The notes under the pieces are model-generated. The model was not told the origin of the DNA and made no database searches. It saw only the letters and a list, made by a program, of their open reading frames with translations. Below, in pieces: positions 20,878-36,389 of a DNA stretch of 64,000 bases. This DNA comes from Mycolicibacterium neoaurum. Its GTDB lineage: Bacteria; Actinomycetota; Actinomycetes; Mycobacteriales; Mycobacteriaceae. The position numbers and the translations under genes were made by a program. The DNA is taken from assembly GCF_036946495.1 (NCBI RefSeq), contig NZ_JAQIIX010000001.1, forward strand, positions 878,697 to 942,696, in the 5' to 3' direction. Position 1 is the stretch's first letter. Each line of letters starts with the position of its first letter.

Positions 20878-20922
20878 AGCAGTAATCGGCATCGCCGCTG
20901 GTACAGGTTGTTTACCGGCGGG

Positions 20923-22038: not shown

Positions 22039-22702
22039 TTTCTAGCTCCCCACGCAGTTCTTCGCGAAGCCGGCGCGATACGCGCCCCCTCTTCTGCTGA
22101 TTAGCATCCGAACCAGCCTGCTGGTCGCGCTCTTCACTAAAGGTGTTGCCCCACAGCCTAAATGACGCCAGAGACAGTTGTTGAAGATCCACGCCGAGCT
22201 GCTTAGCTAGTCGCCGCTCGGCGACTCCGCTTCGATGCAACAAGTCCGTCAGATCCCGCATTGTTACACCCATTCGAGATTCGAATTCGACCAGCGCCTG
22301 AGACCGCCCCTCCCCCACACCCGAGCTACCCGAATCAGATTCCCTTGCAGCACTTTCCGAGTCAACAAAGCTCATGACGCCGCGTTCAAGGAACTCCGCT
22401 AGGTCGAGCCCCGTCATCCGCAGCGAGTCATTGAGCTCTATGACCCCTTGATGCAAAACCAGGTCAGAGATGGTGACCACCGAACCGGTCGCATGCTGGA
22501 GGGCCATCGCCAACACGAGCAGAGTTACGAAACCCGGCGATGATCTAGCGGCCTCAAAATCGCCGACAGACGAGGCCGTCCAGCGCAGACCGAGCCGGCG
22601 AGCGGATCGCGCCAGCTCATCCTGAGTAAGTCCGGAATCCTGTCGAATCGCCTTGCAGTTGCGACCGATCACTTCGGCAAGAGTCAACGTTTCTTCCACC
22701 AC
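22025..22702 (-). CDS. XRE-family HTH protein (repressor-like)
   Basis: N-terminal LTLAEVIGRNCKAIRQDSGLTQDELARSARRLGL is a Cro/C1-type HTH. There is a second HTH-like stretch near the C-terminus (AERRLAKQLGVDLQQLS). It overlaps the integrase start by 14 nt and is divergent from the xis-like gene. GC is lower than the backbone. Confidence 0.8.
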   Translation of the reverse strand: MVEETLTLAEVIGRNCKAIRQDSGLTQDELARSARRLGLRWTASSVGDFEAARSSPGFVTLLVLAMALQHATGSVVTISDLVLHQGVIELNDSLRMTGLDLAEFLERGVMSFVDSESAARESDSGSSGVGEGRSQALVEFESRMGVTMRDLTDLLHRSGVAERRLAKQLGVDLQQLSLASFRLWGNTFSEERDQQAGSDANQQKRGRVSRRLREELRGELENGKG

Positions 22703-22798
22703 ATAACGGACGATATCTGAGTTTCACGTGACTTGACTCCGGATAGCGAATGATGCATCCTCGTCACACGTCACTGATAATCACGTATCACGAGAGGA
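22703..22798. promoter_or_regulatory. divergent early-promoter/operator region of the element
   Basis: A 96-bp spacer between divergent genes. It contains the palindrome TCACGTGA (22724-22731), ACACGTCAC (22766-22774), TCACGTATCACGA (22781-22793) and a -10-like TGATAAT (22775-22781). Confidence 0.5.
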
Positions 22799-23032
22799 TT
22801 GCTTGTCTTGACCGCTCCCAAGCGACCGCCCGATATCGACACCGCCCTACCGAAAGAGGTTGCCGACGCGTTGAAAACGACAGAACAGCGACTTGCCACG
22901 ATGCGCTATCGAGGTACTGGGCCTAAATTCTGCAAGGTCGGCAGGCGGGTCCTGTACCGCTGGTCAGATGTCCGCGATTTCCTCGAAGCCAACACCGTCA
23001 CTCGAACCGACGGGCCACGGGGCGCCGCCTGA
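22799..23032 (+). CDS. excisionase/AlpA-like helix-turn-helix DNA-binding protein
   Basis: 77 aa. EVADALKTTEQRLATMRYRGTGPKFCKVGRRVLYRWSDVRDFLE matches the excisionase-family DNA-binding pattern. The start is TTG at 22799 or 22808. Confidence 0.75.
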   Translation: MLVLTAPKRPPDIDTALPKEVADALKTTEQRLATMRYRGTGPKFCKVGRRVLYRWSDVRDFLEANTVTRTDGPRGAA

Positions 23033-23174
23033 TGTGGCCTCAGGAGCATCACGCCGATTTGGGTCTGGTTGACGATGACCGCACCCCTGACATGCGAACG
23101 ACCCCCGCGGTTCCCGGTGTTGACGCACCGGGCGAGGGCCGTAGCGACCAATCCACCCGTGAGAACAGAAAGGC

Positions 23175-23720
23175 ATGACCATCATGACACACCCCGAAAA
23201 TGACGCCGTGTCTTGGCGCGATCTCGCTGATCGGCTTACCGAAACGCAGGTATTGGAGCTTGAGTGCTTCGAGAAGCAGGCCGGCGACACCAGCGCGGAC
23301 GCCGCGCAACGCGAGTGGCTCATTGGGGAGGCGCGAGACTACATCACCGAGAACGCGGTGATTGCCGAGCTGACTGCCCGTATCCAACCGCCCCGTGGTG
23401 CCAGCGCCATTTTCAGTTGGGACAGCGTCGATAAGGCATCCGGCCTCCGATACCGAGTGATCCAGTGGGCCGCACGTGAACTGGGCTATTGCAGCGTTGA
23501 TATCGACGGATATCAAGACGAGACGGGCGCTGTCGATGGTCCGCACCTTTCCGTGTACGGGCTTGACGGCACACAGATCAGTACACCCGACGCCGTCAAG
23601 TTGGCCGAAACGCTCATCGAGGCAGCCGCTGAACTGGAGCGGCTAAAACAGGCCGAATCGGCCGCGGTTTCCGGCGGCCTCAGCCTGGACGGGGCAGAGA
23701 AGAGCATCCCGCGCCAATGA
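23175..23720 (+). CDS. hypothetical protein (element early region)
   Basis: 181-aa ORF with coding-like GC3. An ATGA junction overlaps the next gene. Confidence 0.6.
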   Translation: MTIMTHPENDAVSWRDLADRLTETQVLELECFEKQAGDTSADAAQREWLIGEARDYITENAVIAELTARIQPPRGASAIFSWDSVDKASGLRYRVIQWAARELGYCSVDIDGYQDETGAVDGPHLSVYGLDGTQISTPDAVKLAETLIEAAAELERLKQAESAAVSGGLSLDGAEKSIPRQ

Positions 23721-24520
23721 GCCGAGGAATGCCTGCCGTGGGTGTCGGAGAACAGACGTCGGTACCTCTCGACGATGCCGCGGCTTTCAACCCGCGAGAG
23801 TTCCGGAGAAGCCTTCGGAACATCGGTCTGACCCCCGGCCAGTTCCGCGTAGCGGTGGAATTGTGCGAGTTCGCCGGGCCGGATAAGCCCGAGGTTTGGC
23901 CTTCGATACCGACTATCGCCGAGAACTGCGAGATGACCCAAAAAGGTGTTCAGGTCGCGTTGAAAGCGCTCACAAAAAGAGGCTTGATCGTGTGTATTCA
24001 CGCGAGCAAGGGTGGTCGCGGGCAAACAAATCGGTGGCGACTCATGGTGCCACAAACCCCGAACGCGGGTTCGGGGTTTGTGGACCAAAAACCCCGAACC
24101 CCAGTTCGGGGTTTGGCATCAGAAACCCCGAACACAGAAGCTCCTAAACCCCGAACACAGAGTCCCGAAACCCCGAACGGGGGTTCGGGGGAAGTAGTTA
24201 GAAGAAGTGAATTAGAAGAAGACCGCGCGCGGCGCCCGTCACCAGAGCTCGACAACCCAGCCGCATACGGACTGCGCCCGAGGCCCCAACAAGCCCCTCC
24301 CTGCAAACGATGCAAGAAGATCCGAGGCGAGGGATGGTGCTCGGATTGCAAGTCACACCGAGAAGCCTGTCAGCGAGATAGGGCCGCGGCCGGTGCCGCC
24401 AGATCGGCCGCGATCGCGGCCTGCACGCTGTGCAACGAATACGGGGAACTTCTCGGCCCAGACGGTCGCACCCCCGTGGATCCGATCGTCCAGCACCACA
24501 ATGCTGCGAGGTCGGCATGA
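23717..24520 (+). CDS. winged-helix DNA-binding protein with C-terminal Cys-rich region (putative replication initiator/organiser)
   Basis: The wHTH-like N-domain is FRVAVELCEFAG...PSIPTIAENCEMTQKGVQVALKALTKRGLIV. A low-complexity linker is encoded by the iteron array. The C-terminus has CKRC...CSDC...CTLC cysteines. Confidence 0.6.
   Translation: MSRGMPAVGVGEQTSVPLDDAAAFNPREFRRSLRNIGLTPGQFRVAVELCEFAGPDKPEVWPSIPTIAENCEMTQKGVQVALKALTKRGLIVCIHASKGGRGQTNRWRLMVPQTPNAGSGFVDQKPRTPVRGLASETPNTEAPKPRTQSPETPNGGSGEVVRRSELEEDRARRPSPELDNPAAYGLRPRPQQAPPCKRCKKIRGEGWCSDCKSHREACQRDRAAAGAARSAAIAACTLCNEYGELLGPDGRTPVDPIVQHHNAARSA
24050..24221. repeat. iteron/inverted-repeat array plus C-free AT-rich tract (putative origin of replication)
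   Basis: AAACCCCGAAC occurs in direct orientation at 24054, 24089, 24123, 24146 and 24168. Three copies pair with an inverted GTTCGGGG(TTT) across 4-nt spacers; the first has 15-bp arms (24050-24083). The array is followed by GAAGTAGTTAGAAGAAGTGAATTAGAAGAAG (24191-24221), about 30 percent GC by hand count and containing no C. Confidence 0.65.
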
Positions 24521-24720
24521 AGCGTCACCCACGATCCGACCTCCAGCTGCCGCTGTTCTGGCTCTGCGACTTCTGTGGCTGGCCGATCATCGAAGGGCGG
24601 GGGCACCTGCACTGCCGGGTGGCGTCTCGGCGCTGGCTTCGCAGCGACAACTACGAGAGCTGGGCTCGGCAACCGGCACGTGACCCCAGCGTGGCGCTGT
24701 CCATCGAGGATGTCGGATGA
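24517..24720 (+). CDS. small Cys/His-containing protein, unknown function
   Basis: ATG at 24517 overlaps the upstream stop (ATGA). The 67-aa product carries CDFC...HLHC. Confidence 0.5.
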   Translation: MKRHPRSDLQLPLFWLCDFCGWPIIEGRGHLHCRVASRRWLRSDNYESWARQPARDPSVALSIEDVG

Positions 24721-25001
24721 CGACCAATCGCGGCGCTAGGCAGGGCCGACGCCCGGTACCGTCGCGCAAAATATGCGAGCGTGCCTACGCCGGCGCTCTC
24801 GGTGAACCCTGCGGGCAGTGCAAGGCAGCTGCTGGTGAGTACTGCACCCGCACCGACGATTACGGCGGGGTTCACGTTCGCCGGATCCCGTGCTTGCACC
24901 GGATTCAGCCGTCGCTGGTCGCCATTGACGATCAGGGGCCTGTGCCCGCCGTGGACTTCGCCGAACCCCGCCACGCACGCAACGACGATCAAGGGACCTG
25001 A
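24717..25001 (+). CDS. small Cys-rich protein, unknown function
   Basis: 94 aa with an ATGA overlap to the upstream gene. It carries a CGQC...C...C pattern. Confidence 0.5.
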   Translation: MTTNRGARQGRRPVPSRKICERAYAGALGEPCGQCKAAAGEYCTRTDDYGGVHVRRIPCLHRIQPSLVAIDDQGPVPAVDFAEPRHARNDDQGT

Positions 25002-25003
25002 CC

Positions 25004-25459
25004 ATGAGCACGAACCGAACCCCGCTCGATGACCTGCGCTACCTGGCCGCCATCAGTGCAGATCTCCTCGACTACGCGATCGATCGGCTCGGCCTGATCG
25101 ACATGCCGCCAGCCGCTGAGGATATGCAAACGATGCTTGAGCTGGTCCAAGGGAGGATCCGGGAGTCGCTGGCAGCGCACGCCGATGACGCGCACCTTCC
25201 ACCGTCGGCGCAGCGATACTCCGACGGCCGCGCCGTTCAGACAGTCGTCGATCGCATCGAGGACCACGGCATTCGACACACCCACATCTGGCACCCCGAC
25301 GTCACCCACGAGACGAATCAGCCTCACCGCGAACAGTTCACCAGCGGCGGCGGGCACCATGTCCGGGTCGTCGGCGGCCCAGGGGTGTTCGATGTGCTCA
25401 CGCTCGATGAGCTCAGCGCGCGGCGCCTGACCTCCAGCGAGGGTCCACAGCGGACGTGA
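25004..25459 (+). CDS. hypothetical protein
   Basis: 151-aa ORF with coding-like GC3. A GTGA junction overlaps the next gene. Confidence 0.55.
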   Translation: MSTNRTPLDDLRYLAAISADLLDYAIDRLGLIDMPPAAEDMQTMLELVQGRIRESLAAHADDAHLPPSAQRYSDGRAVQTVVDRIEDHGIRHTHIWHPDVTHETNQPHREQFTSGGGHHVRVVGGPGVFDVLTLDELSARRLTSSEGPQRT

Positions 25460-25782
25460 GTCGAATCGTCTCTGTGGACCGCTACGAGTGGCTGGAACGC
25501 GTTCTCGGGCACTGTGACCTGACCGCGACTCAAAAACTCGTCCTGATCGCGCTGTGGGCCTGCACGGACGATCTGGGTGCGAACGCGAGACCTGGAACGC
25601 AGGCGTTGGCCCGATTGTGCCGAGTCGGCAGCCGCGCGGTGGACGGCGCGCTGGCCGCTGGCCGGCGACTGGAGCTGCTCGAACAGACCTCCAGAGCGAA
25701 CCCTCGGCGGCGACAGATGGCGGAATACCGTCTGACACTTCCCATCCCACCGTCATCTGTACCGCGTTACAGCTGGTACTGA
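25456..25782 (+). CDS. winged-helix DNA-binding protein
   Basis: LTATQKLVLIALWACTDDLGANARPGTQALARLCRVGSRAVDGALAAGRRLELLEQ resembles the helix-turn-helix domain proteins common in actinophage early regions. Confidence 0.55.
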   Translation: MSRIVSVDRYEWLERVLGHCDLTATQKLVLIALWACTDDLGANARPGTQALARLCRVGSRAVDGALAAGRRLELLEQTSRANPRRRQMAEYRLTLPIPPSSVPRYSWY

Positions 25783-25886
25783 ACCAGAACAGGAGTGCAG
25801 GTAGACACCGGTCAACCCGAGCCGATGTGCAGACAGAACGCCTCAACCCGAACCCCCATGCAGGCAGAAGAGGGCAGACCCGAAAG

Positions 25887-26318
25887 ATGGCACGCACCAA
25901 AGAACCACCACCGCACGGGCACTCCAGGTATCAACAGCCCTGGAACTGCCGATGCGACCTGTGTAGGTCAGACGTAGCCGCAGCCGCCCGGGAACGGAGG
26001 AAACGGCGCCGCATGAATCCGACACCGCGGAAGCCGATGCGCACGATGCCTGTCGAGAAACTGAACGACCCGGTGCTCGCCGCACTGATATCTGCCACCC
26101 GGACACCAGCTCTGCCCGGAGCCCGATGCCGTGGCCGCGCCCACCTATTCGACGAACGACACCCCGACGAGAACACCGAGGTCGCCCGCCAGCGCCAGAC
26201 GCAAGCTCTGGGCCTGTGCAGTCGGTGCCCCGCACTCGACGCCTGCCGCGTGTGGCTGAACTCCCTACCCGCCAGCCAGCAGCCCAGCGGCGTCGTCGCA
26301 GGCCTACTGCGCGATTAA
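25887..26318 (+). CDS. WhiB-like Fe-S transcription factor with N-terminal CRC-x2-C extension
   Basis: ATG at 25887 in ORF 25554..26318. The Cys pattern is ARC...LCSRCPALDAC (C-xn-C-x2-C-x5-C) followed by SGVVAGLL, the WhiB-like turn. The N-terminus has YQQPWNCRCDLC. Confidence 0.7.
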   Translation: MARTKEPPPHGHSRYQQPWNCRCDLCRSDVAAAARERRKRRRMNPTPRKPMRTMPVEKLNDPVLAALISATRTPALPGARCRGRAHLFDERHPDENTEVARQRQTQALGLCSRCPALDACRVWLNSLPASQQPSGVVAGLLRD

Positions 26319-26352
26319 GCAGCACCAAATCCCCCCCACGAAGGAGCCCCGC

Positions 26353-26844
26353 ATGCCGCACGACCCGCGAGCGCTGAACACCATCGACTACCAGCGTGCC
26401 GCCGCGCTGATCGGCCACGAGGCCAACGGCTCGGCCGCCGGCATGCAGTTCGTCGTCGACCAGGCAGCCGGCGAGCGCCGCACCGCGCAGCTGCTCCTGG
26501 CCACCATCGACTGCTACCGCATCGTCACTGACGAGCTGCGCACCCCGGGCGCGCTCATGGCGGTGTGGCAGCTGATCGAGCAGGAGACACGCCGCCGTCC
26601 CGACAACGGTGACGCCCGCCGCGCGGCCACGGCTATCGTGGCGCGCCGCGACACCGACACCGACGCATTCAATGCCGTCCTGTTGGAGGCCAACGAAGTC
26701 GGCCGGCCCTTCGAACTGCTGGCGTCTGTGGTGGGCATCTATTCGGCGATCCTGCCCGAGCTGGCCACGCCGCACGCGACAGCGCACCTGGCGCAGTGGA
26801 CGGCCCGAATCATCGGTCGCGGCGACACCGCCGCCGGCGCGTGA
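26353..26844 (+). CDS. hypothetical protein, paralogue of 33158..33634
   Basis: 163 aa. It aligns by eye over its full length with the 158-aa product of 33158..33634 (QRAxAL, F-V/I-V-x-Q, LRT, RRA, PEL-x-P, LAQ). Confidence 0.6.
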   Translation: MPHDPRALNTIDYQRAAALIGHEANGSAAGMQFVVDQAAGERRTAQLLLATIDCYRIVTDELRTPGALMAVWQLIEQETRRRPDNGDARRAATAIVARRDTDTDAFNAVLLEANEVGRPFELLASVVGIYSAILPELATPHATAHLAQWTARIIGRGDTAAGA

Positions 26845-26990
26845 TTGAACATGCTCCGCAGGATCGGCTATCGTTGTGACAGCTCGGTATCCGCAGCACG
26901 CCAGGCCCCGCAGAAACGGCCCACCTGGACAGCTCCCGGTCACCATGCACCCGTCAGCGCGTATCCGCCTGTTCACGGTCTGGTGATCCT

Positions 26991-27449
26991 TTGAGCGAAA
27001 CACTCACGTATTCAGCTGTTCTCACAGTCGGCGAAGGCCGCACCGTGAGCGGTCTCCTCGTCTCCTACGGAGACACCGCCACCCGCGGTTGCTTTGCCCG
27101 CACGATCGCTGAGCGGGCGGCCAAGGTTCGGCTACTGGCCGACCTCGGCAAGGCCCGTCCCGTCGTGCTCGGTGAAGGCGCCCAGCTGCGGGAGACTGAC
27201 GAAGGCCTGCATGCGACGTTCGCTGTGCCCGAGGAGCTTTCCGCGGCCCTCGACATGGCCACCGACTGGCCGGTCACGGTCCGCACCCAACGCGTCGGCG
27301 CCAGCGAGTTCAAGCTGATCGATGTGCGCCTGGGGCTCCCCGGTCAGTCGCCGGCCCGCTCGCAACCAGCCGCGAGCACTACCGAACGCCGGATCTCCGC
27401 TGATACCGCCCGCCGCCGGTTGGCCCTGTTAGACCTGGAGCGCGCATGA
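26991..27449 (+). CDS. degenerate prohead-protease-like protein (possible scaffold)
   Basis: 152 aa with a TTG start. Its layout is protease-like (VSGLLVSYGDTA...VRLLADLG...LRETDEGLHATFAVPE) but it lacks the His and Ser contexts of the next gene. It shares the C-terminal TARRRLxLLxLER motif with the protease. An ATGA junction overlaps the protease gene. Confidence 0.55.
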   Translation: MSETLTYSAVLTVGEGRTVSGLLVSYGDTATRGCFARTIAERAAKVRLLADLGKARPVVLGEGAQLRETDEGLHATFAVPEELSAALDMATDWPVTVRTQRVGASEFKLIDVRLGLPGQSPARSQPAASTTERRISADTARRRLALLDLERA

Positions 27450-28111
27450 GAACCTTGGTGCGCGACAACCTTTGTCGGTCGCTGCCGTTCACCGCGGTCC
27501 GCGACGGGGCCGCCGACACCGACGCCGACGATGGCCGCAACTTCCAGGGCTTTGGGGCCATGTTCAACACCCCGACCCGGATCGATTCCTGGGGAGAGGG
27601 CAGATTCGACGAGCAGATCGCGCCCGGCGCGTTCCGCAAGTCGCTGCGCGAGGTGGCCCCGAAATTCCAGTTCGACCACGGCCGGCACCCACTGTTCGGC
27701 TCACTGCCCTGCGGGGTGATCACCGACATTCACGAAGACGAACGCGGCCTGTACGTCGCAGCGCGGATGGCCGCGGCCACGCTGTGGGAATCGCTGCGCG
27801 AGGCCATCGCCTCCGGTGCCGTCGACGGCATGAGTTTCCGGTTCTCCGTGATCCGGGAGGAGTGGCGCGACACCCGCGGCAAGCTCGTCCAGCCCGAAGA
27901 CGTCAAGCGGATCCTGTTCTACGGCGAACAGCCCGAACGCGCACCCCTGCTACGCACCCTCAAAGAGGTCCGCGTGACTGAAGTCGGCCCGGTCGTCTGG
28001 CCGGCCTACAGCAGCACCAGCGCCACGCTGCGCACACACCAATCCGGCAGCACCATCACCAGCTCCACGGCCCGACGCCGCCTCAAACTGCTCTCCCTGG
28101 AAAGGAACTGA
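27446..28111 (+). CDS. HK97-family phage prohead protease
   Basis: FQGFGAMFNTPTRIDSWGEGRFDEQIAPGAFRKSL, FQFDHG and VDGMSFRFS are motifs typical of the S78 prohead protease family. It lies immediately upstream of the capsid gene. Confidence 0.85.
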   Translation: MRTLVRDNLCRSLPFTAVRDGAADTDADDGRNFQGFGAMFNTPTRIDSWGEGRFDEQIAPGAFRKSLREVAPKFQFDHGRHPLFGSLPCGVITDIHEDERGLYVAARMAAATLWESLREAIASGAVDGMSFRFSVIREEWRDTRGKLVQPEDVKRILFYGEQPERAPLLRTLKEVRVTEVGPVVWPAYSSTSATLRTHQSGSTITSSTARRRLKLLSLERN

Positions 28112-28118
28112 CTCCACC

Positions 28119-29600
28119 ATGACCATCCGCCTCGAGACCCGCCCCGACGCTCTGGAACGACAGATCGCCGACGCCCGCAAGGAAGCCCGCACGCTGCTCG
28201 ACCGCGCCGGCGGTGCCGACCTCACCGGCGCCGAGGCCGAACGCTTCGACGAACTCACCGAGCTCATCGAGGCTGGAAACCGTCAACTGGAGGGCATCGA
28301 TCGCAACTTCGCCGCCATCCGCGACGCTGCGAGCGACCTGCGCTTCTTCCCCGGCAGCACCGGCGGCGGGGACAGCACCCGAGACGACGGTGACCAGCGT
28401 GGCCGAGCAGGTGGTGCACGCCGCCGACACCGCGACCCCTGGGACACCAGCCACCTGACGCGCATGGGTGTGTTCGGCCGCGACGAGGAATCGATCGGCA
28501 AGGAGCTGCACGAACGTGCCCTCGACGCTGTCGAGGACATGCCCCAGGCCACCGACAAGGTCCGGGAAGCGGCAACCCGGTTCATCGAGCGCGACGACCC
28601 CGACCTCGGCAGTCCGACAGCACAGCTGGTGCTGGCCACCACCAGCCCGCAGTACATGCGGTCGTTCATCAAGATCATCCGCGCCAAGGGCAACATGGCA
28701 GCGCTGCGTGCCGAAGACCAGGAGATGCTGGCCCGCGCGATGTCGCTGGTCGACCTCAATGGCGGCTTCGCCGTGCCGTTCCAGCTCGACCCGTCGGTCA
28801 TCCTGACCGCCGACGGTTCGGTGAATCAGGTCCGTGAGATCGCTCGCGTGGTCCAAGCCACAGGCGACGTCTGGCATGGCCTCTCCTCCACTGGGGTGTT
28901 CGGCTCGTGGGACGGTGAAGGCGAAGAGGTCTCCGACGATTCCCCGACGCTGGAACAGCCCGCGATCCCGGTGCACAAGTACCAGGCGTTCGTGCCGCTT
29001 TCGCATGAGCTGCAGATGGACGCCCCCGGGCTGGCCGACGACATCGCCCGAATGCTGGCCGACGACAAGGACACCAAGGAATCCATCGCGCACGTCACCG
29101 GGACAGGCGTGGGCCAGCCGACCGGCATCATCACCGCGCTGGCCGGAACCGCCTCGGTGAGGCCGGCCATCACGGCCGACACCCTGTCCGCTAAGGATGT
29201 GTACGACCTCGATAGCGCGCTGCCGCAGCGCTATGCCGCCAACGGTTCCTGGCTGGCGCACCGCAAGACCTACAACGCCTTGCGCCAGTTCGATCAGGGC
29301 GGCGGCAACGCACTGTGGGGCCAGCTCGCCGACGGCCGCAAGTCCGAGCTGCTCGGCCGACCCAACTACATCGCCGAAGCGATGAAGAGCACCATCGCCG
29401 CCGGCCAGACCAACCACATGTTGGTGTTCGGAAACTTCCGCAACTACGTCATCGCGGATCGTTTGGGCGCCACCATGTCCTACATCCCCCACCTGTTCGG
29501 CCCCAACGGGCGACCCAACGGCAAGGCCGGCTGGCACGCCTGGTTCCGCAGCGGCGCGGACAGCGTGAACGACGCAGCCTTCCGCGTCCTGGACTGCTAA
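28119..29600 (+). CDS. HK97-family phage major capsid protein
   Basis: 493 aa. It has an N-terminal coiled-coil delta-like region, then LNGGFAVPFQLDPSVILT, WDGEGEEVSD..P.L.QP.IPVHKYQAFVPLSHEL, GTGVGQPTGI, LLGRPNYIAEAM and GNFRNYVIADRLG, which are typical HK97-fold capsid signatures. Confidence 0.9.
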   Translation: MTIRLETRPDALERQIADARKEARTLLDRAGGADLTGAEAERFDELTELIEAGNRQLEGIDRNFAAIRDAASDLRFFPGSTGGGDSTRDDGDQRGRAGGARRRHRDPWDTSHLTRMGVFGRDEESIGKELHERALDAVEDMPQATDKVREAATRFIERDDPDLGSPTAQLVLATTSPQYMRSFIKIIRAKGNMAALRAEDQEMLARAMSLVDLNGGFAVPFQLDPSVILTADGSVNQVREIARVVQATGDVWHGLSSTGVFGSWDGEGEEVSDDSPTLEQPAIPVHKYQAFVPLSHELQMDAPGLADDIARMLADDKDTKESIAHVTGTGVGQPTGIITALAGTASVRPAITADTLSAKDVYDLDSALPQRYAANGSWLAHRKTYNALRQFDQGGGNALWGQLADGRKSELLGRPNYIAEAMKSTIAAGQTNHMLVFGNFRNYVIADRLGATMSYIPHLFGPNGRPNGKAGWHAWFRSGADSVNDAAFRVLDC

Positions 29601-29619
29601 CGGCCGCAACGGGTGTCAC

Positions 29620-29648
29620 GGTGGGGGTGCGTCTGGCGCACCCCCACC
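29620..29648 (+). terminator. strong GC hairpin after the capsid gene
   Basis: GGTGGGGGTGCG-tctgg-CGCACCCCCACC forms a perfect 12-bp stem (13 bp with the flanking C/G), 20 nt after the capsid stop. Confidence 0.6.
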
Positions 29649-29700
29649 GACAGGGCACCGAGTGACTTGTCAGCCATCGAGCCGATAGAAGGTAGCGATC

Positions 29701-32700
29701 TTGGCGATCCATGTGGACGTCTTCACCCGGCTCAACGAGCGGCGGGTGCGCCAGGACGCCAGGGCCCTTGTCGATGAGTTCGATAGCGCGGGCGAGCGTG
29801 CCGGTAAGAACTTCGGGGAGAACCTTTCCGCGGGCATCGAACGCTCCGGCCCGCGAGTCGAACGATCGGCAGCCCGGATGGAGAAGGCCACCGACAAGGT
29901 GGCCGACTCGATGGGCCGGGTCAATGTCGAGATGGCGAAATATGCGGAGCTGCAGAAGAAATCGACCGCGACTGACCGACAGAAGATCCAGCAGTCGGAA
30001 GCCCTGGCTCGGGCCCAGCGGGCGCACGCCGCCGCGGTGCGCGATGCAACCCGTGCCATGATGCGTTCCAACGAGGAATCTGACCGCACCGTCTCACGCA
30101 TGGCCACCCTCAACACCAGCCTGAGCTTGATGGGCAAGGGTAGCGGTGCGCTGGCCATCGGTGCGCTGGCCCCCACGCTCGCCGTCGCAGCTGGTGCCGC
30201 GGCCACCGCCGCCGGTGCAATAGCGCTGCTGCCCGGTGCGATCGGCGGGGCTGTCGCCGCGTTCGGGGCCCTCAAGATCGCCACCCTCGGGTTCGGCGAC
30301 GCGATGAGCAACCTGCGCGACCCGGAGAAGTTCGCCGAGTCACTGCAGTCGCTGTCCCCGAATGCCCAGCAAGCAGCGCTGTCGATCCGATCGTTGATGC
30401 CCGCCTTCGACTCGCTGAAGAACACGACTCAGGACGCCCTGTTCGATGGGATATCGGGCCAAATCCAGTCACTGTCAACATCATTGATGCCGACCGTGCA
30501 GCGTGTCACCGTCGGCGTCGCGGGTGCGTTCAATGAGATTTTCATGGGCGTCACCAGTCAGCTGATGTCCCCGGATACCTTCGCTTCGCTGGACAACCTC
30601 GCCGATAACGTGGTGAGCGCGTTCGACAAGCTGGCACCGGCCGCGGCCCCTTTCACCGCAGCCATGACCGACATCATGAGCGTCGGCTCGGAGTTCCTGC
30701 CCGGCATGGCCGACGCGGTCAGCGCCGCCGCGCAGAAGTTCGCCGCGTTCATCAGCGAAGGGATGCGCACCGGCGAGCTGAAACAACACATGGCTGACGC
30801 GTTGGCCGTGGCCAAGGAGATCGGCAGAGCCATCATCGCGGTGGGCAACGCATTCGTCTCCCTGGGGCCGGCCGCCCGTGAGGTGCTGCCCGTCCTGGTC
30901 GACGGTCTGGACTCCGTGTCGAAGCTGCTGCGCGAACACCCCAACCTGATCTGGGGCGTGGTCGGCGCGTTCACAGCATGGAAGACCATCCAGGGCGTCG
31001 CCGCACTGACCTCGTCACTACAGACCATCAGCACCCTGCTCAGCACCGGCCTGCCCGCCGCCGCCGGCAAGGGCGCTGGCGGGATCACCGCCGCACTGGC
31101 CAAGATCAAGATGCCGCCCTGGCTGCTGACGATCGGCAAATGGGCTCCGCTGGCCGGTGTGGGCCTGAACTCCGACGTCCGCACCCCTGGCGAGGTCGGG
31201 CTGCCCGCAGTCCAATATGACGACCAGGGGCGCCCCTACCTGCCCGGCACTGCGTATGACCCAGGCCTCAACCGCACCGGCGGCAGCTTCGGACCCGGCG
31301 CCGACCAGTTCCAACCCCACCCCGGGCGTGCACCCTTCGGGACTGGCCTGACCAACGGACGCCCGCACAACGCCCCCGAGACACCGCTGTTCGACGTGCC
31401 AGTACCCACGGGCACCAACAGCGGCCCGCGACTGCCCGACGCGCCCGTGCTGCCCTACACAGCCAATCGCAGCACCGCGCCCACCGCGGCGCTGTTCTCC
31501 GCCGAGAACGCCGTCTACGACGCCCGCCACGACCTCGAGGAGAAGCGCGCCCGACTCACCCAGCTCCAGTCCACCAACACCGCGACAGACAGCGACATCC
31601 AGGACGCCCGCAACGACGTGGCCAAGGCAGAAGAAGACGAGCACGAAGCTCAGCTGCGATTGAACGAAGCACGACTGTCGGCCACCCGCGCGGGAATCAA
31701 CCAGCTCAACTCCGCTGCCAACCAGCTGGGCGATATCGGCGCGAAACTGGACCAGGACTTCGGCCTGTCGCGTGGTCTGCCTGGGCTTGCGGAGAACCTG
31801 ATCAAGTTCGTCGCCAATCTTGCTGCCGCTGGCCCGATGGCACAGCTCGGCGCCATCGCGGCCGCCTCCCCGTCCCAGGGTGGCTACGGCGCAATGGGGG
31901 TCCTCGGTGCCCAGGGCGCGTTCGGCGATCGATTCACCGGCATCGACCCCCAGCGCATGTACGGCGGATACGGGCCGTCGGGGATCGGCCCGGCCGCGCT
32001 CGGCGGCGGCATGGGATACGGGGCCTACCCCGGGGACGCCGCGCTGCTGGCCAACGTGCCGTCCGGCCGCTACACCCAGGAAGAACGCGGCGATCTCACC
32101 CAGGGTCTGGCCGACTGCTCCAGCGCCGTCGAAGACCTCGTCAACATGCTGGACGGGCGGCCCACCGGTGGGGCGTCGATGACGACGCACAACGCTCACG
32201 AGTGGCTGCAGTCCCGCGGGTTCCGGCCCGGTATGGGCGGACCGGGTGACATGCGTGTCGGGTTCAACCCCGACCACATGCAGGCAACACTGCCCGGCGG
32301 AACGCCCTTCAACTGGGGGTCGAAGGAGGCAGCGGCCCGCGGTGGTGTCGGCGGTACCGGTGCATACGACCCGTCGTTCACGTCGCACTACTACCGGCCG
32401 GCCACCGGCGGCGTGCCGTCACTGACTACCAGCCCGTCGTTGGCGCCGAGCCCGTCACTGTCCACCAGCGGTGTGCCGTCCTCGGCCGCGCTCAACAGCG
32501 ACCCCTCGCTGACCAACCCCGCCCTCACCCCGGCGGTCCTGCCGCCACTCGGGTCGGTGCCCAGCAGCGGCGGCCCATTCAGCACCGGAATGCCGCAGGC
32601 TGCGTTCTTCGGCGGCCCGGGAGGCCCTGGCGCGGGTGCCACACCGATCGGTGGGCTCGCCCCGCCCGGGGGCTCCGGCGGTGGCGGCGCGGTCGGACTC

Positions 32701-33144
32701 ACCGGCGGCGGCGCGATCGGTCTCGGCATGCAGGCCGGCGGTATGGCCCTCGACGTCATGGCGCCAGGCGCCGGACAGGCTGCGCAAACCGCAATCAAGC
32801 TCGGCTCTCGCGCCATCGAGTTCGGATCCCAAGCCGGCAGCATCGGTGTCAGCGGCGTCATGGAAACCCTGCTGCCCACCGGCGGATCGGAGCTGGCCAA
32901 CAACAACTGGGCCACCAAGCTCCTCGGCGGGCTAGCAGGCATGGGCCCAGCACTGCCGAACACCGCCGGCGGGAAGTCCGCCGGCCAGCTGGGCGGCCAA
33001 CCCGCGCAAAGCGACCAGAACGCACCGAACGAGACGAACAACAACTACGACGTCAAAATCGACGCTGCCGCAAGGGATTCCGGAGGACTCATGCGCGACT
33101 TCGAGTACCACACCACCGCGGCCGCAGCCGCCCCCGGAATGTAA
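29701..33144 (+). CDS. tape-measure-like protein with embedded Cys/His peptidase-like segment
   Basis: 1147 aa. It has N-terminal coiled-coil-type sequence, Gly/Ala-rich hydrophobic segments (GALAIGALAPTLAVAAGAAATAAGAIALLPGAIGG) and long low-complexity Gly/Pro regions. There is an LADCSSAVEDLV...NPDHMQATL segment. The overall layout matches actinophage tape-measure proteins. Confidence 0.7.
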   Translation: MAIHVDVFTRLNERRVRQDARALVDEFDSAGERAGKNFGENLSAGIERSGPRVERSAARMEKATDKVADSMGRVNVEMAKYAELQKKSTATDRQKIQQSEALARAQRAHAAAVRDATRAMMRSNEESDRTVSRMATLNTSLSLMGKGSGALAIGALAPTLAVAAGAAATAAGAIALLPGAIGGAVAAFGALKIATLGFGDAMSNLRDPEKFAESLQSLSPNAQQAALSIRSLMPAFDSLKNTTQDALFDGISGQIQSLSTSLMPTVQRVTVGVAGAFNEIFMGVTSQLMSPDTFASLDNLADNVVSAFDKLAPAAAPFTAAMTDIMSVGSEFLPGMADAVSAAAQKFAAFISEGMRTGELKQHMADALAVAKEIGRAIIAVGNAFVSLGPAAREVLPVLVDGLDSVSKLLREHPNLIWGVVGAFTAWKTIQGVAALTSSLQTISTLLSTGLPAAAGKGAGGITAALAKIKMPPWLLTIGKWAPLAGVGLNSDVRTPGEVGLPAVQYDDQGRPYLPGTAYDPGLNRTGGSFGPGADQFQPHPGRAPFGTGLTNGRPHNAPETPLFDVPVPTGTNSGPRLPDAPVLPYTANRSTAPTAALFSAENAVYDARHDLEEKRARLTQLQSTNTATDSDIQDARNDVAKAEEDEHEAQLRLNEARLSATRAGINQLNSAANQLGDIGAKLDQDFGLSRGLPGLAENLIKFVANLAAAGPMAQLGAIAAASPSQGGYGAMGVLGAQGAFGDRFTGIDPQRMYGGYGPSGIGPAALGGGMGYGAYPGDAALLANVPSGRYTQEERGDLTQGLADCSSAVEDLVNMLDGRPTGGASMTTHNAHEWLQSRGFRPGMGGPGDMRVGFNPDHMQATLPGGTPFNWGSKEAAARGGVGGTGAYDPSFTSHYYRPATGGVPSLTTSPSLAPSPSLSTSGVPSSAALNSDPSLTNPALTPAVLPPLGSVPSSGGPFSTGMPQAAFFGGPGGPGAGATPIGGLAPPGGSGGGGAVGLTGGGAIGLGMQAGGMALDVMAPGAGQAAQTAIKLGSRAIEFGSQAGSIGVSGVMETLLPTGGSELANNNWATKLLGGLAGMGPALPNTAGGKSAGQLGGQPAQSDQNAPNETNNNYDVKIDAAARDSGGLMRDFEYHTTAAAAAPGM

Positions 33145-33157
33145 GGCAATCGATCTC

Positions 33158-33634
33158 ATGACAGACCCCGTGACCACTTCACCCGTCGACGAGCAGCGGG
33201 CATCCGCACTGCTCTCACACCTTGCATCGGCCGATCAGCAAGGCGCCGCATTCATCGTCAACCAATCCGCGGCCGACGGCAGGCACACAGCGCTACTCGC
33301 AGCCATCGCCGACACCGGCGGCAAACTGATGGCGGCACTGCGCACCGACACAGGCATCGAAGCCGCGGTATCCATGGTCCAAGCCTGGGTAGAACAGGAC
33401 GAATCGCCAGATCACCGGCGTGCGGGCGGCATCATCGCCTGCCGATTCCAGTTCGAGCACGCCCACTTCCTCGGCCACATCGCCGACGCAGCAGCGGCTG
33501 GCCGTCTCGACGAACTCGTCCTGACCACCGCGCAGTGCTACCTGGCGCTCATGCCAGAACTGCATGCCCCGAAAGGGCGAGCCACCCTGGCGCAAATGGC
33601 AGCCGCTCTATCCAGCGAGTCCCCAGACCGATGA
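33158..33634 (+). CDS. hypothetical protein, paralogue of 26353..26844
   Basis: 158 aa with full-length similarity to the 26353..26844 product. It is followed by a terminator hairpin. Confidence 0.6.
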   Translation: MTDPVTTSPVDEQRASALLSHLASADQQGAAFIVNQSAADGRHTALLAAIADTGGKLMAALRTDTGIEAAVSMVQAWVEQDESPDHRRAGGIIACRFQFEHAHFLGHIADAAAAGRLDELVLTTAQCYLALMPELHAPKGRATLAQMAAALSSESPDR

Positions 33635-33653
33635 GCTCAAGCCCCCGGCAACC

Positions 33654-33678
33654 GGGGTGTCCGCCGAACGGACACCCC
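33654..33678 (+). terminator. hairpin terminator
   Basis: GGGGTGTCCG-ccgaa-CGGACACCCC forms a perfect 10-bp stem, 20 nt after the stop at 33634. Confidence 0.55.
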
Positions 33679-33885
33679 CGCACTAGTTTGCTGATGCACA
33701 CCCGGAGTTTGCTGGAGCGGGCCGCCCGCCCGGGGGGTACCTCAAAGATCGTGGGAAACGCCCAGGCGGCAAGACCCGTCGGGGGCAGTCGTCTTTCGCG
33801 GAGAGTCGCTGACCTGCACATGTGCACTCCCACTTGGGGCGTCAACGGTTTGCTACGTGTTTGCTGGATTGGTTGCTGATGCGGT

Positions 33886-34386
33886 ATGGCGAAGGCTCAT
33901 AATCGCACGACCTACAACCAAGGTTGCCGCTGTGACGTGTGCGTACAGGCGAACTCCGACTACCGCAAGCAACGCCGCATGCAGAAGAACGGCGAAGTTG
34001 CTGAACGGAAACCGAAGCGGCTGGCCGTGGTCAAAAATGTGCAACCCGATGTGCACACAAAAGTGCACATTCCCGGCGAGCCCACACCGGACCCGCCAGA
34101 GCCCGGCGAATGGTCCGTCGAGGCCGAAGTCCGCGCCCAGCTGGCCGAGCTTTCCGCCACCACCACACGCCGCGGCGAAGTTGCTGCAGCGATCGCGATG
34201 GCCCGCCTCCTGGACAACCCACGCGCGATCGCGCAGCACCCCGCCGCCACAGGCCGCCTTGTCGAGATCATCGAACGTCTACGTAAGGGCTCCGATCGGA
34301 AAACCGGCAAGCTCGCAGCTGTTCGCAAGATGACCCGCGGCACGGACGGCGCACCTAACGTTGATGGCCATGGGCAAGCACAGTAG
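33886..34386 (+). CDS. basic protein with N-terminal Y-x2-G-CRC-x2-C motif (DNA-binding or possibly small-terminase-like)
   Basis: 166 aa. The N-terminus is MAKAHNRTTYNQGCRCDVCVQANSDYRKQRRMQKNG, and the C-terminal half is helical (LLDNPRAIAQHPAATGRLVEIIERLRK). Clustered GTTTGCT repeats precede the gene. Confidence 0.55.
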   Translation: MAKAHNRTTYNQGCRCDVCVQANSDYRKQRRMQKNGEVAERKPKRLAVVKNVQPDVHTKVHIPGEPTPDPPEPGEWSVEAEVRAQLAELSATTTRRGEVAAAIAMARLLDNPRAIAQHPAATGRLVEIIERLRKGSDRKTGKLAAVRKMTRGTDGAPNVDGHGQAQ

Positions 34387-34636
34387 ACGCCGGGCCGCGG
34401 CCGGCCTGGATCCGCTGGTGCCGCTCGCCGGCGGCGACCAGGCGTTCGAGCTCGTCGACGATGGCCCCGTGCTGGCCGGCACGCTGCGCCAGCTCGCCGG
34501 CAGAATCATCGACTGCAACGACTGGGCACACATCCGGCTGAACGCGCAGATCATGGACACCCCCGCGGCTCGCGCCCAGGTCCCCAACGCCGCCGCCACG
34601 CTGCGCCAGTACTTCGACCGCTACCACCCCGCATGA
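34364..34636 (+). CDS. hypothetical protein
   Basis: About 90 aa in a frame with strong GC3 bias. The antisense ORF 34355..34627 is Gly/Arg/Val-rich and looks like an artefact. The start is TTG at 34361, or ATG at 34364 or 34370. Confidence 0.5.
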   Translation: MAMGKHSRRRAAAGLDPLVPLAGGDQAFELVDDGPVLAGTLRQLAGRIIDCNDWAHIRLNAQIMDTPAARAQVPNAAATLRQYFDRYHPA

Positions 34637-34641
34637 TGCGT

Positions 34642-34830
34642 TCAGAAGCCCCGCTTGATCTGCCTTATCACCTGGGCCAGGTTGCCGTCTTCACGGTCGA
34701 GTTCCTCGATTGCGCGCGCAAGGCTTTCCATCCCCTCGGCTAGCGCAATCACCGCTGGGTCGCCTGACGATTGCATGGCCTGCCTGGCTTTCGCGCCCGC
34801 TTGACGGGCGTGGTTGGCCGTGTTGCTCAA
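34642..34830 (-). CDS. small helical protein, unknown (last gene of the reverse cargo operon)
   Basis: 62 aa, MSNTANHARQAGAKARQAMQSS...LARAIEELDREDGNLAQVIRQIKRGF. It lies 25 nt after the upstream gene, and local GC is lower. Confidence 0.5.
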   Translation of the reverse strand: MSNTANHARQAGAKARQAMQSSGDPAVIALAEGMESLARAIEELDREDGNLAQVIRQIKRGF

Positions 34831-34855
34831 CGTTTGATCTCCTTGATAATTAGAG

Positions 34856-35389
34856 TCAGTACTCGTCGCGAGGGATGTCTGTTAGCCGGCTCGGCACCGC
34901 TTCGACCACGCCGATGCCGTCATACTCAGGCTCGGGTCGCCTGACTCGGAACGGTGCGTGGTACGCCACGCGACGTAGGTCTTTCATGCCGCTATGCACC
35001 AATTGGACTGCAGTAGTGGCGTGCCGGCCTTCGTCTCGTTTGGCATGCATCGCGTCGCGATACATGATGACGTTGGCCATTCGTTGTTGGACTACGTTCG
35101 CCGCGCGGCGGACATCAGGATCAGGGTGCCCGTAAGCAAGCCAGTTGAGGTTCGGCTCGATCTCTTTCTGCAGCTTGTCCTGCAGCTCCATCGCTCGGTT
35201 CCAGCTCTCCTTCTGCTGCTCGTCGGTGAACTCGCGGTCGAACACGCTGGAGGCGAACAGTGTGACCTCCCTGAAGAGCTCCCGCATCCAGTACCGGTCA
35301 ATCTCCGCAACGACCCCAATCGTCCTCTCATGCAGCTGGCGAACAAACGCCCTGTATTCGCTGTCCAGGACGTCATCAATCTCGCTCAT
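34856..35389 (-). CDS. hypothetical protein, no recognisable family
   Basis: 177 aa, predicted mostly helical, with an ATG start. It begins 12 nt after the upstream gene's stop. Confidence 0.6.
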   Translation of the reverse strand: MSEIDDVLDSEYRAFVRQLHERTIGVVAEIDRYWMRELFREVTLFASSVFDREFTDEQQKESWNRAMELQDKLQKEIEPNLNWLAYGHPDPDVRRAANVVQQRMANVIMYRDAMHAKRDEGRHATTAVQLVHSGMKDLRRVAYHAPFRVRRPEPEYDGIGVVEAVPSRLTDIPRDEY

Positions 35390-35401
35390 ATCCCCTACCT
35401 T

Positions 35402-35887
35402 TCAACTACTGATGATGGTGCCCCCGGCACCACCGAGAGCGGTGATAGCCACCTGCGAGCCGAATCCACCGAGCCATAACGCAGCTCGTTTGAACTTGCT
35501 CCGCTCCTCTTCGTCTCGGTGCTCGTCTGCGCCAGCCGTTTCCAACGCGCACACGAGCCGGTCGAGGAGTGCCTCAGGGGTCGGCCATGCGCCTGCCACC
35601 CGAAGTGCGGCACCGGTCGGTGCACCGACGTACCAAAGCTCACCACTGGCAGCCGCCATCTTGCCCTTCTCATCGAGGTAGGGCTCGGCATAGAGTGCGC
35701 GCAACGCCCGTTGGACGTCGTTCTTGTCCATGCCGGTTCGCCGGTAAATGCTCCCAGCATCGATGCTGGTCTCGCCCGACTCGATGAAGATCTCCACGAC
35801 CGCTTTCAACACCGGCAGGTCGCGGCTCTCCCACGTCTCACGCATCATGCCTGCGACGCTACTGGCAGCCACCGACGTGCAAGCCAA
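35402..35887 (-). CDS. winged-helix-like protein with Gly-rich hydrophobic C-terminal tail
   Basis: The N-part (LPVLKAVVEIFIESGETSIDAGSIYRRTGMDKNDVQRALRALYAEPYL) looks wHTH-like. The C-terminus AALWLGGFGSQVAITALGGAGGTIISS looks like a membrane or glycine-zipper segment. The likelier start is the ATG pair at 35848/35845. Confidence 0.55.
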   Translation of the reverse strand: MACTSVAASSVAGMMRETWESRDLPVLKAVVEIFIESGETSIDAGSIYRRTGMDKNDVQRALRALYAEPYLDEKGKMAAASGELWYVGAPTGAALRVAGAWPTPEALLDRLVCALETAGADEHRDEEERSKFKRAALWLGGFGSQVAITALGGAGGTIISS

Positions 35888-35945
35888 ACCAACGGCGGTC
35901 TCACCCGATCGGCCGACATACTCATCATGCCGTCAGCCCATGTCG

Positions 35946-36356
35946 CTACAGTGGCAAGTCAGTCAGCGCAGTCCCGCGCTCGCCCCCGAGGTGATCGGTC
36001 CACGTGATCTCGATCCTGGGCGGGTTTGACCGTGCGCCCATGGCCACTTTGAACGGCGCAGCCACGTAGTCGCCTTGCTGCATTTCAGCCCGCTTTGCGG
36101 ACCAGTCACGACGGGCGATGGTCCCGCCGACCGCCGCGCCCTTCAGACGCATCTCTACGCGGGTAACCGCATGCCCGGTGTTGTTCGCGATGACCAGCAG
36201 AGATCCGCGATCTCGCCGCACTGTCCACTCGTCCACTTGGTGTAACCTTCCTGACCACAATATGCCCACAATTTGCCCGCAGTTACAGATATCTGACGGT
36301 ATGTCTGAATACCTAAAGTTGCTGGTGAAAGACCGTGCATCCCGCTGAACTGGCAC
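35946..36356 (-). CDS. hypothetical protein (first gene of the reverse cargo operon)
   Basis: 136-aa ORF whose C-terminal about 100 aa look beta-rich. The 5' end overlaps the arm-type repeat and the tRNA-like remnant, so the real start may be GTG at 36268. Confidence 0.45.
   Translation of the reverse strand: MPVQRDARSFTSNFRYSDIPSDICNCGQIVGILWSGRLHQVDEWTVRRDRGSLLVIANNTGHAVTRVEMRLKGAAVGGTIARRDWSAKRAEMQQGDYVAAPFKVAMGARSNPPRIEITWTDHLGGERGTALTDLPL
36262..36277 (+). repeat. 16-bp repeat TGCCCACAATTTGCCC (candidate integrase arm-type site, P side)
   Basis: Identical to 20947-20962. It is preceded by a related ACCACAAT. Confidence 0.6.
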
Positions 36357-36364
36357 GAAAAAAC

Positions 36365-36389
36365 AGTTCGAATCTCACCGAGGGCACCA
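36365..36389 (+). repeat. attR core (duplicated tRNA 3' end)
   Basis: Identical 25-mer to 20853-20877. Confidence 0.9.

Follow-up and report, generated by a model that had tools for sequence, protein, structure and literature searches.

What kind of mobile element carries a phage capsid gene directly followed by a tape measure protein (TMP) gene, and encodes no portal, large terminase or tail tube? The question arises at a locus of Mycolicibacterium neoaurum (assembly GCF_036946495.1), within a 64,000-nucleotide stretch of contig NZ_JAQIIX010000001.1 (positions 878,697 to 942,696 of the forward strand) that we call the window and in whose coordinates all positions are given. An integrated element of ~15.5 kb occupies 20853-36389. 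We consider it likely that this element is a phage satellite that depends on a helper, one of a small, ~15.5-kb tRNA-integrating family in Mycolicibacterium and Mycobacterium.

The borders of the element are marked by an exact 25-bp direct repeat, AGTTCGAATCTCACCGAGGGCACCA, present at both ends with a spacing of 15,512 bp.

20853-20877, + strand: attL, the 25-bp core, which is the 3' end of a tRNA-Leu(CAA) gene at 20801-20877 (exact repeat, ARAGORN and Rfam)
36365-36389, + strand: attR, the second copy of the 25-bp core

Within these borders lies a structural module with the following features.

26353-26844, + strand: gene A, all-helical and specific to this element family; paralogue of 33158-33634, with 73-80% identity in the related elements L001 and L002
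26845-26990, + strand: conserved non-coding element, the 146-bp spacer between A and PL, with dyads GGTCACCA (26938) / TGGTGATC (26981) and CCAGG (26901) / CCTGG (26924)
26991-27449, + strand: pseudo-protease PL, 152 aa, homologue of the N-terminal half of S78 proteases (hhalign probability 98.1%, E 9e-14)
27446-28111, + strand: active HK97-type prohead serine protease, Peptidase_S78 (PF04586, E 6e-24)
28119-29600, + strand: HK97-fold major capsid protein (MCP; Pfam PF05065, E 1.5e-47; TIGR01554, E 5e-58)
29620-29648, + strand: GC-rich hairpin between the MCP and TMP genes, GGTGGGGGTGCG-TCTG-GCGCACCCCCACC, with a perfect 12-bp stem, read from the sequence
29701-33144, + strand: TMP, 1147 aa, directly after the MCP gene (phrog_2337, E 5e-233)
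33158-33634, + strand: gene A', which closes the module directly after the TMP gene; paralogue of A (32% identity, BLASTP E 1e-18)

The initial annotation, made from the sequence of 26353-33144, had described an HK97-type protease and capsid, a degenerate protease paralogue and a 1147-aa tape-measure-like protein, and Pfam, TIGR01554, hhalign and phrog_2337 agree with it on each. It had also claimed that no open reading frame (ORF) for a large terminase, portal, connector, tail tube or lysis protein is present. Scans of all other sense ORFs with Pfam, PHROG, NCBIfam and PADLOC likewise detected no large terminase subunit (TerL), portal, connector or tail tube, nor any tail chaperone, tail tip or lysis protein. 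Apart from the integrase, no other sense ORF in the element exceeds 267 aa, as had been stated, and the long antisense ORFs have no matches. As the initial annotation held, this 15.5-kb element cannot be an autonomous tailed phage.

The TMP is an unusual component. Over residues 1-1146 it can be aligned, with 51-54% identity, to TMPs of cluster-N-type mycobacteriophages such as MichelleMyBell, Redi and Butters; the N-terminus is 49% identical to the TMP of L010, a complete prophage of M. canariasense, and the C-terminus 50% identical to that of prophiGD02-2. By these alignments, the product of 29701-33144 is a genuine, full-length TMP of typical siphophage type. At roughly 0.15 nm per residue, its 1147 aa would correspond to a tail of about 170 nm. 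Its surroundings are different from those in siphophages, where the TMP gene comes after the chaperone genes and before the distal and minor tail genes. Here the MCP gene precedes it and A' follows, and no chaperone, tube or minor tail gene is found around it.

The module is not confined to this locus, but recurs in at least four other elements. The block of A, PL, protease, MCP and TMP is syntenic in Mycolicibacterium sp. Y3 (L001; GCA_051188035) and in a 15,978-bp Logan contig (L002), with 47-80% amino acid identity. It is also present in M. neoaurum VKM Ac-1815D (L021, CP006936; found in IMG/VR as well, as L025), where the MCP is 99% identical and the DNA of the block ~90%; the integrase and regulatory arm of L021 are unrelated to those of the window element. 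Partial blocks occur in M. palauense (L009), on a contig that ends after the MCP gene, and in Mycobacterium sp. 1274756.6 (L018), where A, a single active protease, the MCP and the beginning of a TMP gene are present. Because L021 lacks A' and L002 lacks the small-terminase-like gene described below, the strict core consists of A, PL, protease, MCP and TMP.

Despite differing accessory genes, the att-to-att sizes of family elements are 15,512, 15,514, 15,549 and 15,961 bp. The elements target tRNA-Leu, -Gly, -Tyr and -Thr, and their integrases differ and are unrelated. In all six genes of the module, third-codon-position identity (0.36-0.68) is well below that of first and second positions (0.6-0.85), a signature typical of ORFs under purifying selection. 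On sequence evidence, the element is a replicon that is mobile and whose structural block is under selection and constrained in size. L002, recovered from five samples, starts and ends in the att core of L021 (the 3' end of tRNA-Gly), so that its ends (1-17 and 15962-15978) overlap by 17 bp. Because a circle and an assembly break at the att repeats both fit this overlap, it is not used here as evidence of excision.

The same comparisons bear on whether the locus is simply a defective prophage, that is, a deletion remnant of a temperate phage like L010 or prophiGD02-2 in which the genes for protease, capsid and TMP happened to survive and mobilisation has ceased. The closest homologues of each structural gene do reside in complete prophages with canonical gene order. 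Ten complete prophages with the same capsid family, together with prophiGD02-2, encode, in this order, TerL, portal, a protease fused to a MuF-like domain, MCP, adaptor, stopper, terminator, tube, chaperone, TMP and minor tail proteins. The block is likely to have originated by reduction from an L010-like phage, and mobilisation of the present element is predicted. A recent deletion is nevertheless unlikely because no fewer than five independent elements share the reduced block, at 47-80% amino acid identity, with intact ORFs that carry the purifying-selection signature; because sizes are near-identical across four different tRNA sites and different integrases; and because A, A', PL and the conserved non-coding element belong to the family and are found in none of the phages. 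The att repeats are intact as well, and these comparisons already suggest a long horizontal spread of the block as a unit. The initial annotation had proposed that relatives carrying the element within a larger prophage would mark it as a remnant. The relatives instead prove to be independent elements, 15.5-16.0 kb long, that differ in integrase and in tRNA target, which argues for a dedicated small element, and we regard the remnant explanation as unlikely.

Two components of the module that had been overlooked are peculiar to the family. First, the paralogous genes A and A' flank the module on both sides. The A protein is represented by only 18 clusters among 5.8 billion proteins. It has no match in a collection of 50,697 phage records, an alignment of A and A' found no match in the genomes of 185k species representatives, and A, A' and PL are absent both from the ten complete prophages and from the phage collection. 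The AlphaFold2 (AF2) model of A is confident (pLDDT 80), yet Foldseek gave no significant match in PDB or BFVD, and these fold searches lend no support to a role of A as small terminase, adaptor or other known component. A' is 65% identical in L001 and L002, and absent from L021.

Homologues of these proteins also occur elsewhere. In L004 (1-12080) and L005 (976-1461), an A' homologue (56% identity) closes a different small element, with an AAA_25 replicase, an HTH_17 excisionase and a small resolvase; this element encodes a 515-aa large terminase (Terminase_6N) and has no recognisable capsid gene. In L005, ordinary chromosomal genes come next. The A/A' family may thus be a marker for small phage-parasitic islands of several kinds that differ in their hijack modules. 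On a 9.9-kb metagenome contig (L003, 3589-7544), a distant homologue of A (47%) accompanies an integrase and a DUF3631 primase-like gene; there, the S78 protease and MCP genes are fragmented and there is no TMP gene. L003 may be a TMP-less relative or a poor assembly. A PHROG search of the unassigned ORFs of L003 and L004 was uninformative.

The second overlooked component is the non-coding element at 26845-26990, which is strongly conserved. Between family members, 76-86% of its core is identical, whereas third-codon-position identity in the flanking genes is 57-68%, and it is recognisable even in the divergent L018. It is absent from the complete phages and from the phage collection, and a search of IMG/VR returned only the M. 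neoaurum element itself. Six metagenome matches to its pattern were rejected as chance occurrences, since their flanks are dissimilar and no related proteins are present. RNAalifold predicts stems with almost no covariation, and there is no Rfam match. Our guess is that the spacer is a promoter or operator. A scan for promoter and terminator consensus sequences gave matches at chance level only.

PL and the protease that follows it are a non-catalytic and an active homologue. In the active protease, the His of FQFDHG and the Ser of DGMSFRF are conserved with phage proteases. This protein lacks the MuF-like C-terminal extension of its phage homologues, which are 308-aa fusions. PL matches TIGR01543 weakly (E 2.5e-4); in the alignment its catalytic His site FQFDHG is replaced by LLADLG, and PL orthologues vary at the Ser position. 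By sequence, PL is a catalytically dead protease paralogue. It is conserved in L001, L002, L009 and L021, and shares with the active protease a C-terminal tail, ARRRLxLLDLE. In a representative library we also observed a 624-aa protein, P0143, in which seven separate stretches match the N-terminal region of PL; such a protein would consist of tandem repeats of the motif at the protease N-terminus.

The N-terminal region of HK97-type capsid proteins constitutes the scaffold (delta) domain, and it is here that the MCP of the family departs from its phage relatives. The protein scores far above curated cutoffs (162.7 bits versus 24.2 for PF05065 and 197 bits versus 27.5 for TIGR01554), and is 62% identical to the prophiGD02-2 MCP from residue 107 onward. 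Over the body of the protein (residues 106-493), mean identity between satellites and phages is 0.65, compared with 0.66 among satellites, and single satellites pair with single phages (L009 with L010, 0.80; L018 with L019, 0.88). Over the N-terminal ~105 residues, phages are 0.66 identical to one another, and satellites are 0.26 identical to phages (range 0.17-0.47). The hairpin downstream of the MCP gene, which is shared with L021 only, may be an attenuator that sets the ratio of MCP to TMP expression.

If the element is a satellite, how might its DNA be recognised for packaging? The features that bear on this question lie just to the right of the module.

33635-33885, + strand: putative packaging-recognition (cos/pac) region, non-coding, ~250 bp, upstream of the TerS-like ORF
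33886-34386, + strand: probable small terminase (TerS-like), 166 aa; zinc motif at the N-terminus, helical domain at the C-terminus (phrog_37967, 'unknown')
34361-34636, + strand: conserved short ORF that overlaps the TerS-like gene at its end (90% identity in L021, 51% in L001)

The TerS-like gene starts 740 bp past the end of the interval first described, and matches no family model in Pfam or NCBIfam. Its homologue in Mycobacterium abscessus phage phiT45-1 is gene 1 (bases 69-524 from the physical left end) and overlaps the terminase gene; in Gordonia phage Reyja it is gene 2, immediately before the terminase gene. In a JGI phage contig (L035) the homologue overlaps a gene for a 531-aa terminase, with portal, protease and MCP genes then following. 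The homologue in prophage L010 (49% identity, 4811-5257) overlaps TerL (5253-6926), and that in L017 also directly precedes or overlaps a large terminase gene. Because homologues in five unrelated phages occupy the canonical TerS position, 33886-34386 probably encodes a small terminase, an assignment from position and from the shared repeat region. The description of the module as head-only and without terminase consequently needs amendment: the large subunit is indeed absent, but a probable small subunit and a putative packaging region are present.

The region upstream of this gene is rich in repeats. GTTTGCT occurs at 33686, 33707, 33848 and 33859, followed by GGTTGCTG at 33871, and the region also holds CCCGGGGGG at 33729, TTTCGCGGAG at 33794 and the palindrome GCACATGTGC at 33816. 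The window contains eight copies of GTTTGCT, compared with 2.9 expected; no shuffled sequence reached eight, and four of the eight lie within 180 bp. In the complete prophage L010, the region before TerS has a collinear, ordered layout that includes the 21-bp spacing of the first repeat pair, and a collinear layout is also found upstream of the TerS-like gene in L021 and L001. In phiT45-1, five of 11 GTTTGC hexamers fall within ~330 bp around the physical genome ends. We infer that 33635-33885 is a terminase recognition (cos/pac) region. Comparison of satellites with the regions upstream of TerL in eight prophages (for L010, the interval downstream of its TerS) produced only chance 13-17-mers. 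The small ORF at 34361-34636 has no family match. An N-terminal motif, H..Y.QGCRCD.C...RK.RR, is common to the TerS-like protein (33886-33985) and to a WhiB-like regulator of the element (25887-25990); it corresponds to Pfam Phage_zn_bind_8 in neighbouring loci and weakly matches a PHROG HNH family.

Which phages could act as helpers? Phages with this capsid family have genomes of 50-60 kb that encode TerL, portal, MuF-fused protease, connectors, tube, chaperones, minor tail and lysis proteins, and they lack A, A', PL and the 26845-26990 element. Proteins of prophiGD02-2 (MW584199), L010 and Gordonia phages such as Bunnybear are 64-69% (protease), 62-67% (MCP body) and 49-73% (TMP segments) identical to those of the element. 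L010 also shares the TerS homologue and the matching repeat architecture upstream of it, and the closest phage homologues of the element's TerS-like protein, protease, MCP and TMP are those of an L010-type phage. phiT45-1 was rejected as a helper, because it has only the TerS-like protein in common with the element. In M. palauense CECT 8779, the satellite-type PL/protease/MCP element L009 (NODE_77, at tRNA-Thr) coexists with a complete prophage, L014 (NODE_61), whose MCP is 74% and whose protease is 80% identical to those of L009. L009 and L014 are thus a candidate natural satellite-helper pair.

The elements phiRv1 and phiRv2 encode a capsid and a prohead protease and are not known to encode a TMP. 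The resemblance to them that had been noted stands as a likeness in gene content only. Both are among the candidate PICIs (chromosomal islands that are phage-inducible) of Mycobacterium, which are defined by the presence, within a small island, of an integrase gene together with a major capsid gene (Abad et al. 2023, PMC10654092). The window element, with an integrase and an MCP gene within 15.5 kb, conforms to this operational definition. Many of these candidates reside at tRNA genes, and some include genes for replication, for a terminase or for a scaffold (PMC10654092; de Sousa et al. 2023, PMC10085698). The main texts of PMC10654092 and PMC10085698 mention no TMP for them.

Capsid-forming PICIs (cf-PICIs) offer a second comparison. 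They encode their own portal, head-tail adaptor, connector and TerL, and take only tails from the helper (Alqurainy et al. 2023, via PMC10085698). The likeness to capsid-forming satellites proposed in the initial annotation extends to the element's own HK97-type capsid and protease and to its size (the cf-PICI median is 14 kb; PMC10085698). It does not extend to the defining features, for the window element lacks portal, adaptor, connector and TerL, yet has a tail gene. Because portal, TerL and adaptors are missing, the element is not a cf-PICI. SatelliteFinder treats tail profiles as forbidden components (PMC10085698). The element has the integrase, regulator and replication module that SatelliteFinder expects at the left end of a PICI (here a tyrosine integrase, a helix-turn-helix (HTH) regulator, an excisionase and an O-like initiator with iterons), but its TMP departs from the rule that PICIs and cf-PICIs have no tail genes. 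A PICI in this sense also has a small terminase or another gene that redirects packaging, for which the TerS-like gene is the candidate here. SatelliteFinder would reject the element because tail genes are forbidden.

Close analogues are the Extracellular Prophage-Inducing Particles (EPIPs) of Mycolicibacterium aichiense, such as Alyssa1 (OR387110), which are isolated satellites that encode TerS, MCP and TMP and for which a change in tail length is reported (Qian et al., bioRxiv Dec 2025, PMC12822802). Both are small Mycobacteriaceae elements without portal, TerL, tail tube and lysis genes that have capsid and TMP genes, with a TerS gene in EPIPs and a probable one here, and in both the TMP gene comes immediately after the capsid gene. 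However, EPIPs are 11 kb in size and encode a serine integrase, a scaffold, a head-to-tail adaptor, a stopper, an MCP of 274 aa and a TMP of 651 aa, but no S78 protease. The window element is 15.5 kb and has a tyrosine integrase at a tRNA gene, protease and PL, an HK97 MCP that includes a delta-like domain and a TMP of 1147 aa, but neither adaptor nor stopper. Of the EPIP gene set, MCP, TMP and a probable TerS are common to both. Comparison of A, PL/protease and MCP with all Alyssa1 proteins (BLAST/tblastn and hmmsearch profiles) gave no match, and the TMPs do not match either. The initial annotation called the TMP gene unusual for so small an element, and among satellites it is indeed rare: in the literature consulted, a TMP is named only for EPIPs and a TMP-like protein only for PLE11, and EPIPs are the only described Mycobacteriaceae satellites with a TMP (PMC12822802).

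On the satellite reading, the element would excise and replicate after induction of, or infection by, an L010-type temperate siphophage. This helper would provide the lysis functions as well as TerL, portal, connectors, tube, chaperones and tip. The satellite MCP, with its divergent N-terminal scaffold domain, would build procapsids on helper portals together with the active protease and PL, which keeps the capsid-targeting C-terminal tail. These capsids would probably be small, matched to a genome of 15.5 kb (~0.26-0.31 of the genome size of phages that share this capsid family, which is 50-60 kb). The TerS-like protein would bind the GTTTGCT-repeat region and recruit the helper large terminase, so that satellite DNA is packaged, and helper connectors and tail parts assembled around the satellite TMP would complete the particle. 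The element may in this way remodel both the capsid and the tail of its helper, as had been suggested. The least certain step is the reason for encoding a TMP, which could be to change tail length, to escape helper exclusion at DNA entry or to interfere with helper tail assembly.

A more specific proposal, which we offer tentatively and consider doubtful, is that EPIPs and this family converged independently on a capsid gene followed by their own TMP gene. PL and the diverged delta domain of the MCP would then form an internal scaffold for small, 15.5-kb capsids, and the satellite TMP would either set a distinct tail length or let particles with helper tails enter helper lysogens by escaping TMP-directed superinfection exclusion. 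If this proposal is correct, TMP replacement would be a genuine and recurrent hijacking strategy.

Several points weigh against assigning the element to helper-dependent satellites. Its excision, packaging and transfer are predictions made from sequence, and we infer capsid-size redirection and TMP incorporation. The TerS assignment was made by gene position only; the AF2 model of this protein, from a shallow alignment of five sequences, is unusable (pLDDT 59). Neither the TerS-like gene, missing from L002, nor A', missing from L021, is strictly core. At the MCP N-terminus, L009 shows less divergence: its MCP can be aligned with a phage MCP starting at residue 25. The family is rare, as the 18 protein clusters for A/A' indicate, and no helper phage was found within the 64-kb window.

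An element of this content might also serve its host by interference, with a decoy capsid, the dead protease and the TMP poisoning assembly of a related phage while the element itself remains unpackaged. Satellites and prophages commonly block helper assembly, the literature includes a paper on defence via inhibition of virion assembly, and a dead protease with a capsid-targeting tail and a foreign TMP are plausible assembly poisons. However, PADLOC found no match, and the TerS-like gene, the phage-type packaging region and a size held at ~15.5 kb point to self-packaging. Interference and satellite transfer can also coexist. As an explanation that excludes packaging of the element, interference appears improbable.

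Very improbable, in our assessment, is a host-domesticated particle system resembling a gene transfer agent or an encapsulin, with the TMP-like protein as cargo or effector. A capsid and protease without portal are enough for a closed shell, and the C-terminal targeting-like tails on both protease homologues recall cargo-loading peptides. Such a system does not accord with an element that is strain-specific and mobile (att sites, integrase, excisionase, replicon and varying tRNA targets) rather than a conserved chromosomal locus, or with a full-length TMP of typical siphophage type and the presence of a packaging region and a TerS-like gene.

Remaining features of the satellite candidate lie in its two arms. 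The left arm contains integration, regulation and replication genes, as well as further small proteins with HTH or zinc motifs.

20923-22038, - strand: tyrosine integrase (Pfam Phage_integrase, E 1e-18, and Arm-DNA-bind_4; phrog_1, E 1.5e-68)
22025-22702, - strand: HTH_3/HTH_31 repressor-like regulator, divergent from xis (weak Pfam HTH_3 match, E 1.5e-4)
22799-23032, + strand: excisionase-type HTH_17 protein (Pfam HTH_17, E 1.7e-6; phrog_66 excisionase)
23717-24520, + strand: replication initiator with a lambda O-like winged helix (phrog_270, E 2.5e-13; phrog_391, E 4.5e-11; Pfam HTH_36)
25456-25782, + strand: second small HTH protein, resembling the N-terminus of replication initiators (phrog_26991, E 2e-20; phrog_270, E 4.6e-6)
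25887-26318, + strand: WhiB-like regulator whose N-terminus has a CxCxxC zinc motif (phrog_9926, E 7.7e-6; Pfam Whib below its cutoff, E 2.8e-4)

A counterpart of the HTH regulator gene occupies the matching position in L001 and L021, and the second small HTH protein is 71-73% identical in these two elements. Inside the initiator gene, at 24050-24194, are three near-palindromic repeats of 31 nt each (CCAMAAACCCCGAAC...GTTCGGGGTTTG); the core, AAACCCCGAAC, occurs five times. This arrangement looks like an iteron-type origin embedded in its own initiator gene, as in lambda O. Weak, sub-threshold Rfam matches at the same position probably reflect merely hairpins.

The right arm ends in three genes on the opposite strand.

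34856-35389, 35402-35887 and 35946-36356, - strand: three cargo genes of lower GC content (0.61)

None of the three has an informative Pfam, PHROG or PADLOC match, and the element as a whole has no PADLOC match to defence genes. Prophages and satellites often carry defence or fitness cargo at this position. The right arms of the relatives differ, with a HicB-like gene in L021, a NikA-like/RHH gene in L001 and a PhdYeFM antitoxin gene in L002. Just outside attR, the host gene at 37198-39198 (- strand) encodes a 666-aa secreted-looking protein with C-terminal PV.E..PV repeats (EAPVTEVPMEETPVVEVPVEETPVAEVPVEE...).

Phage satellites shape gene flow and phage resistance, and mycobacterial satellites are known almost only from genomics (phiRv1/2 and the candidate PICIs) and from one 2025 preprint (EPIPs). 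The family described here would be a second, independent case of a satellite that encodes a TMP, and would be among very few such elements known. Because current satellite finders forbid this gene class, TMP-bearing satellites would be systematically filtered out. The parts that lend themselves to experiment are the likely packaging site and TerS shared with a helper-type prophage, the pseudo-protease, the diverged capsid scaffold domain and the conserved size. With these, capsid-size control and tail hijacking in actinobacterial phages become experimentally approachable, and could inform the design of delivery vehicles for mycobacteria.

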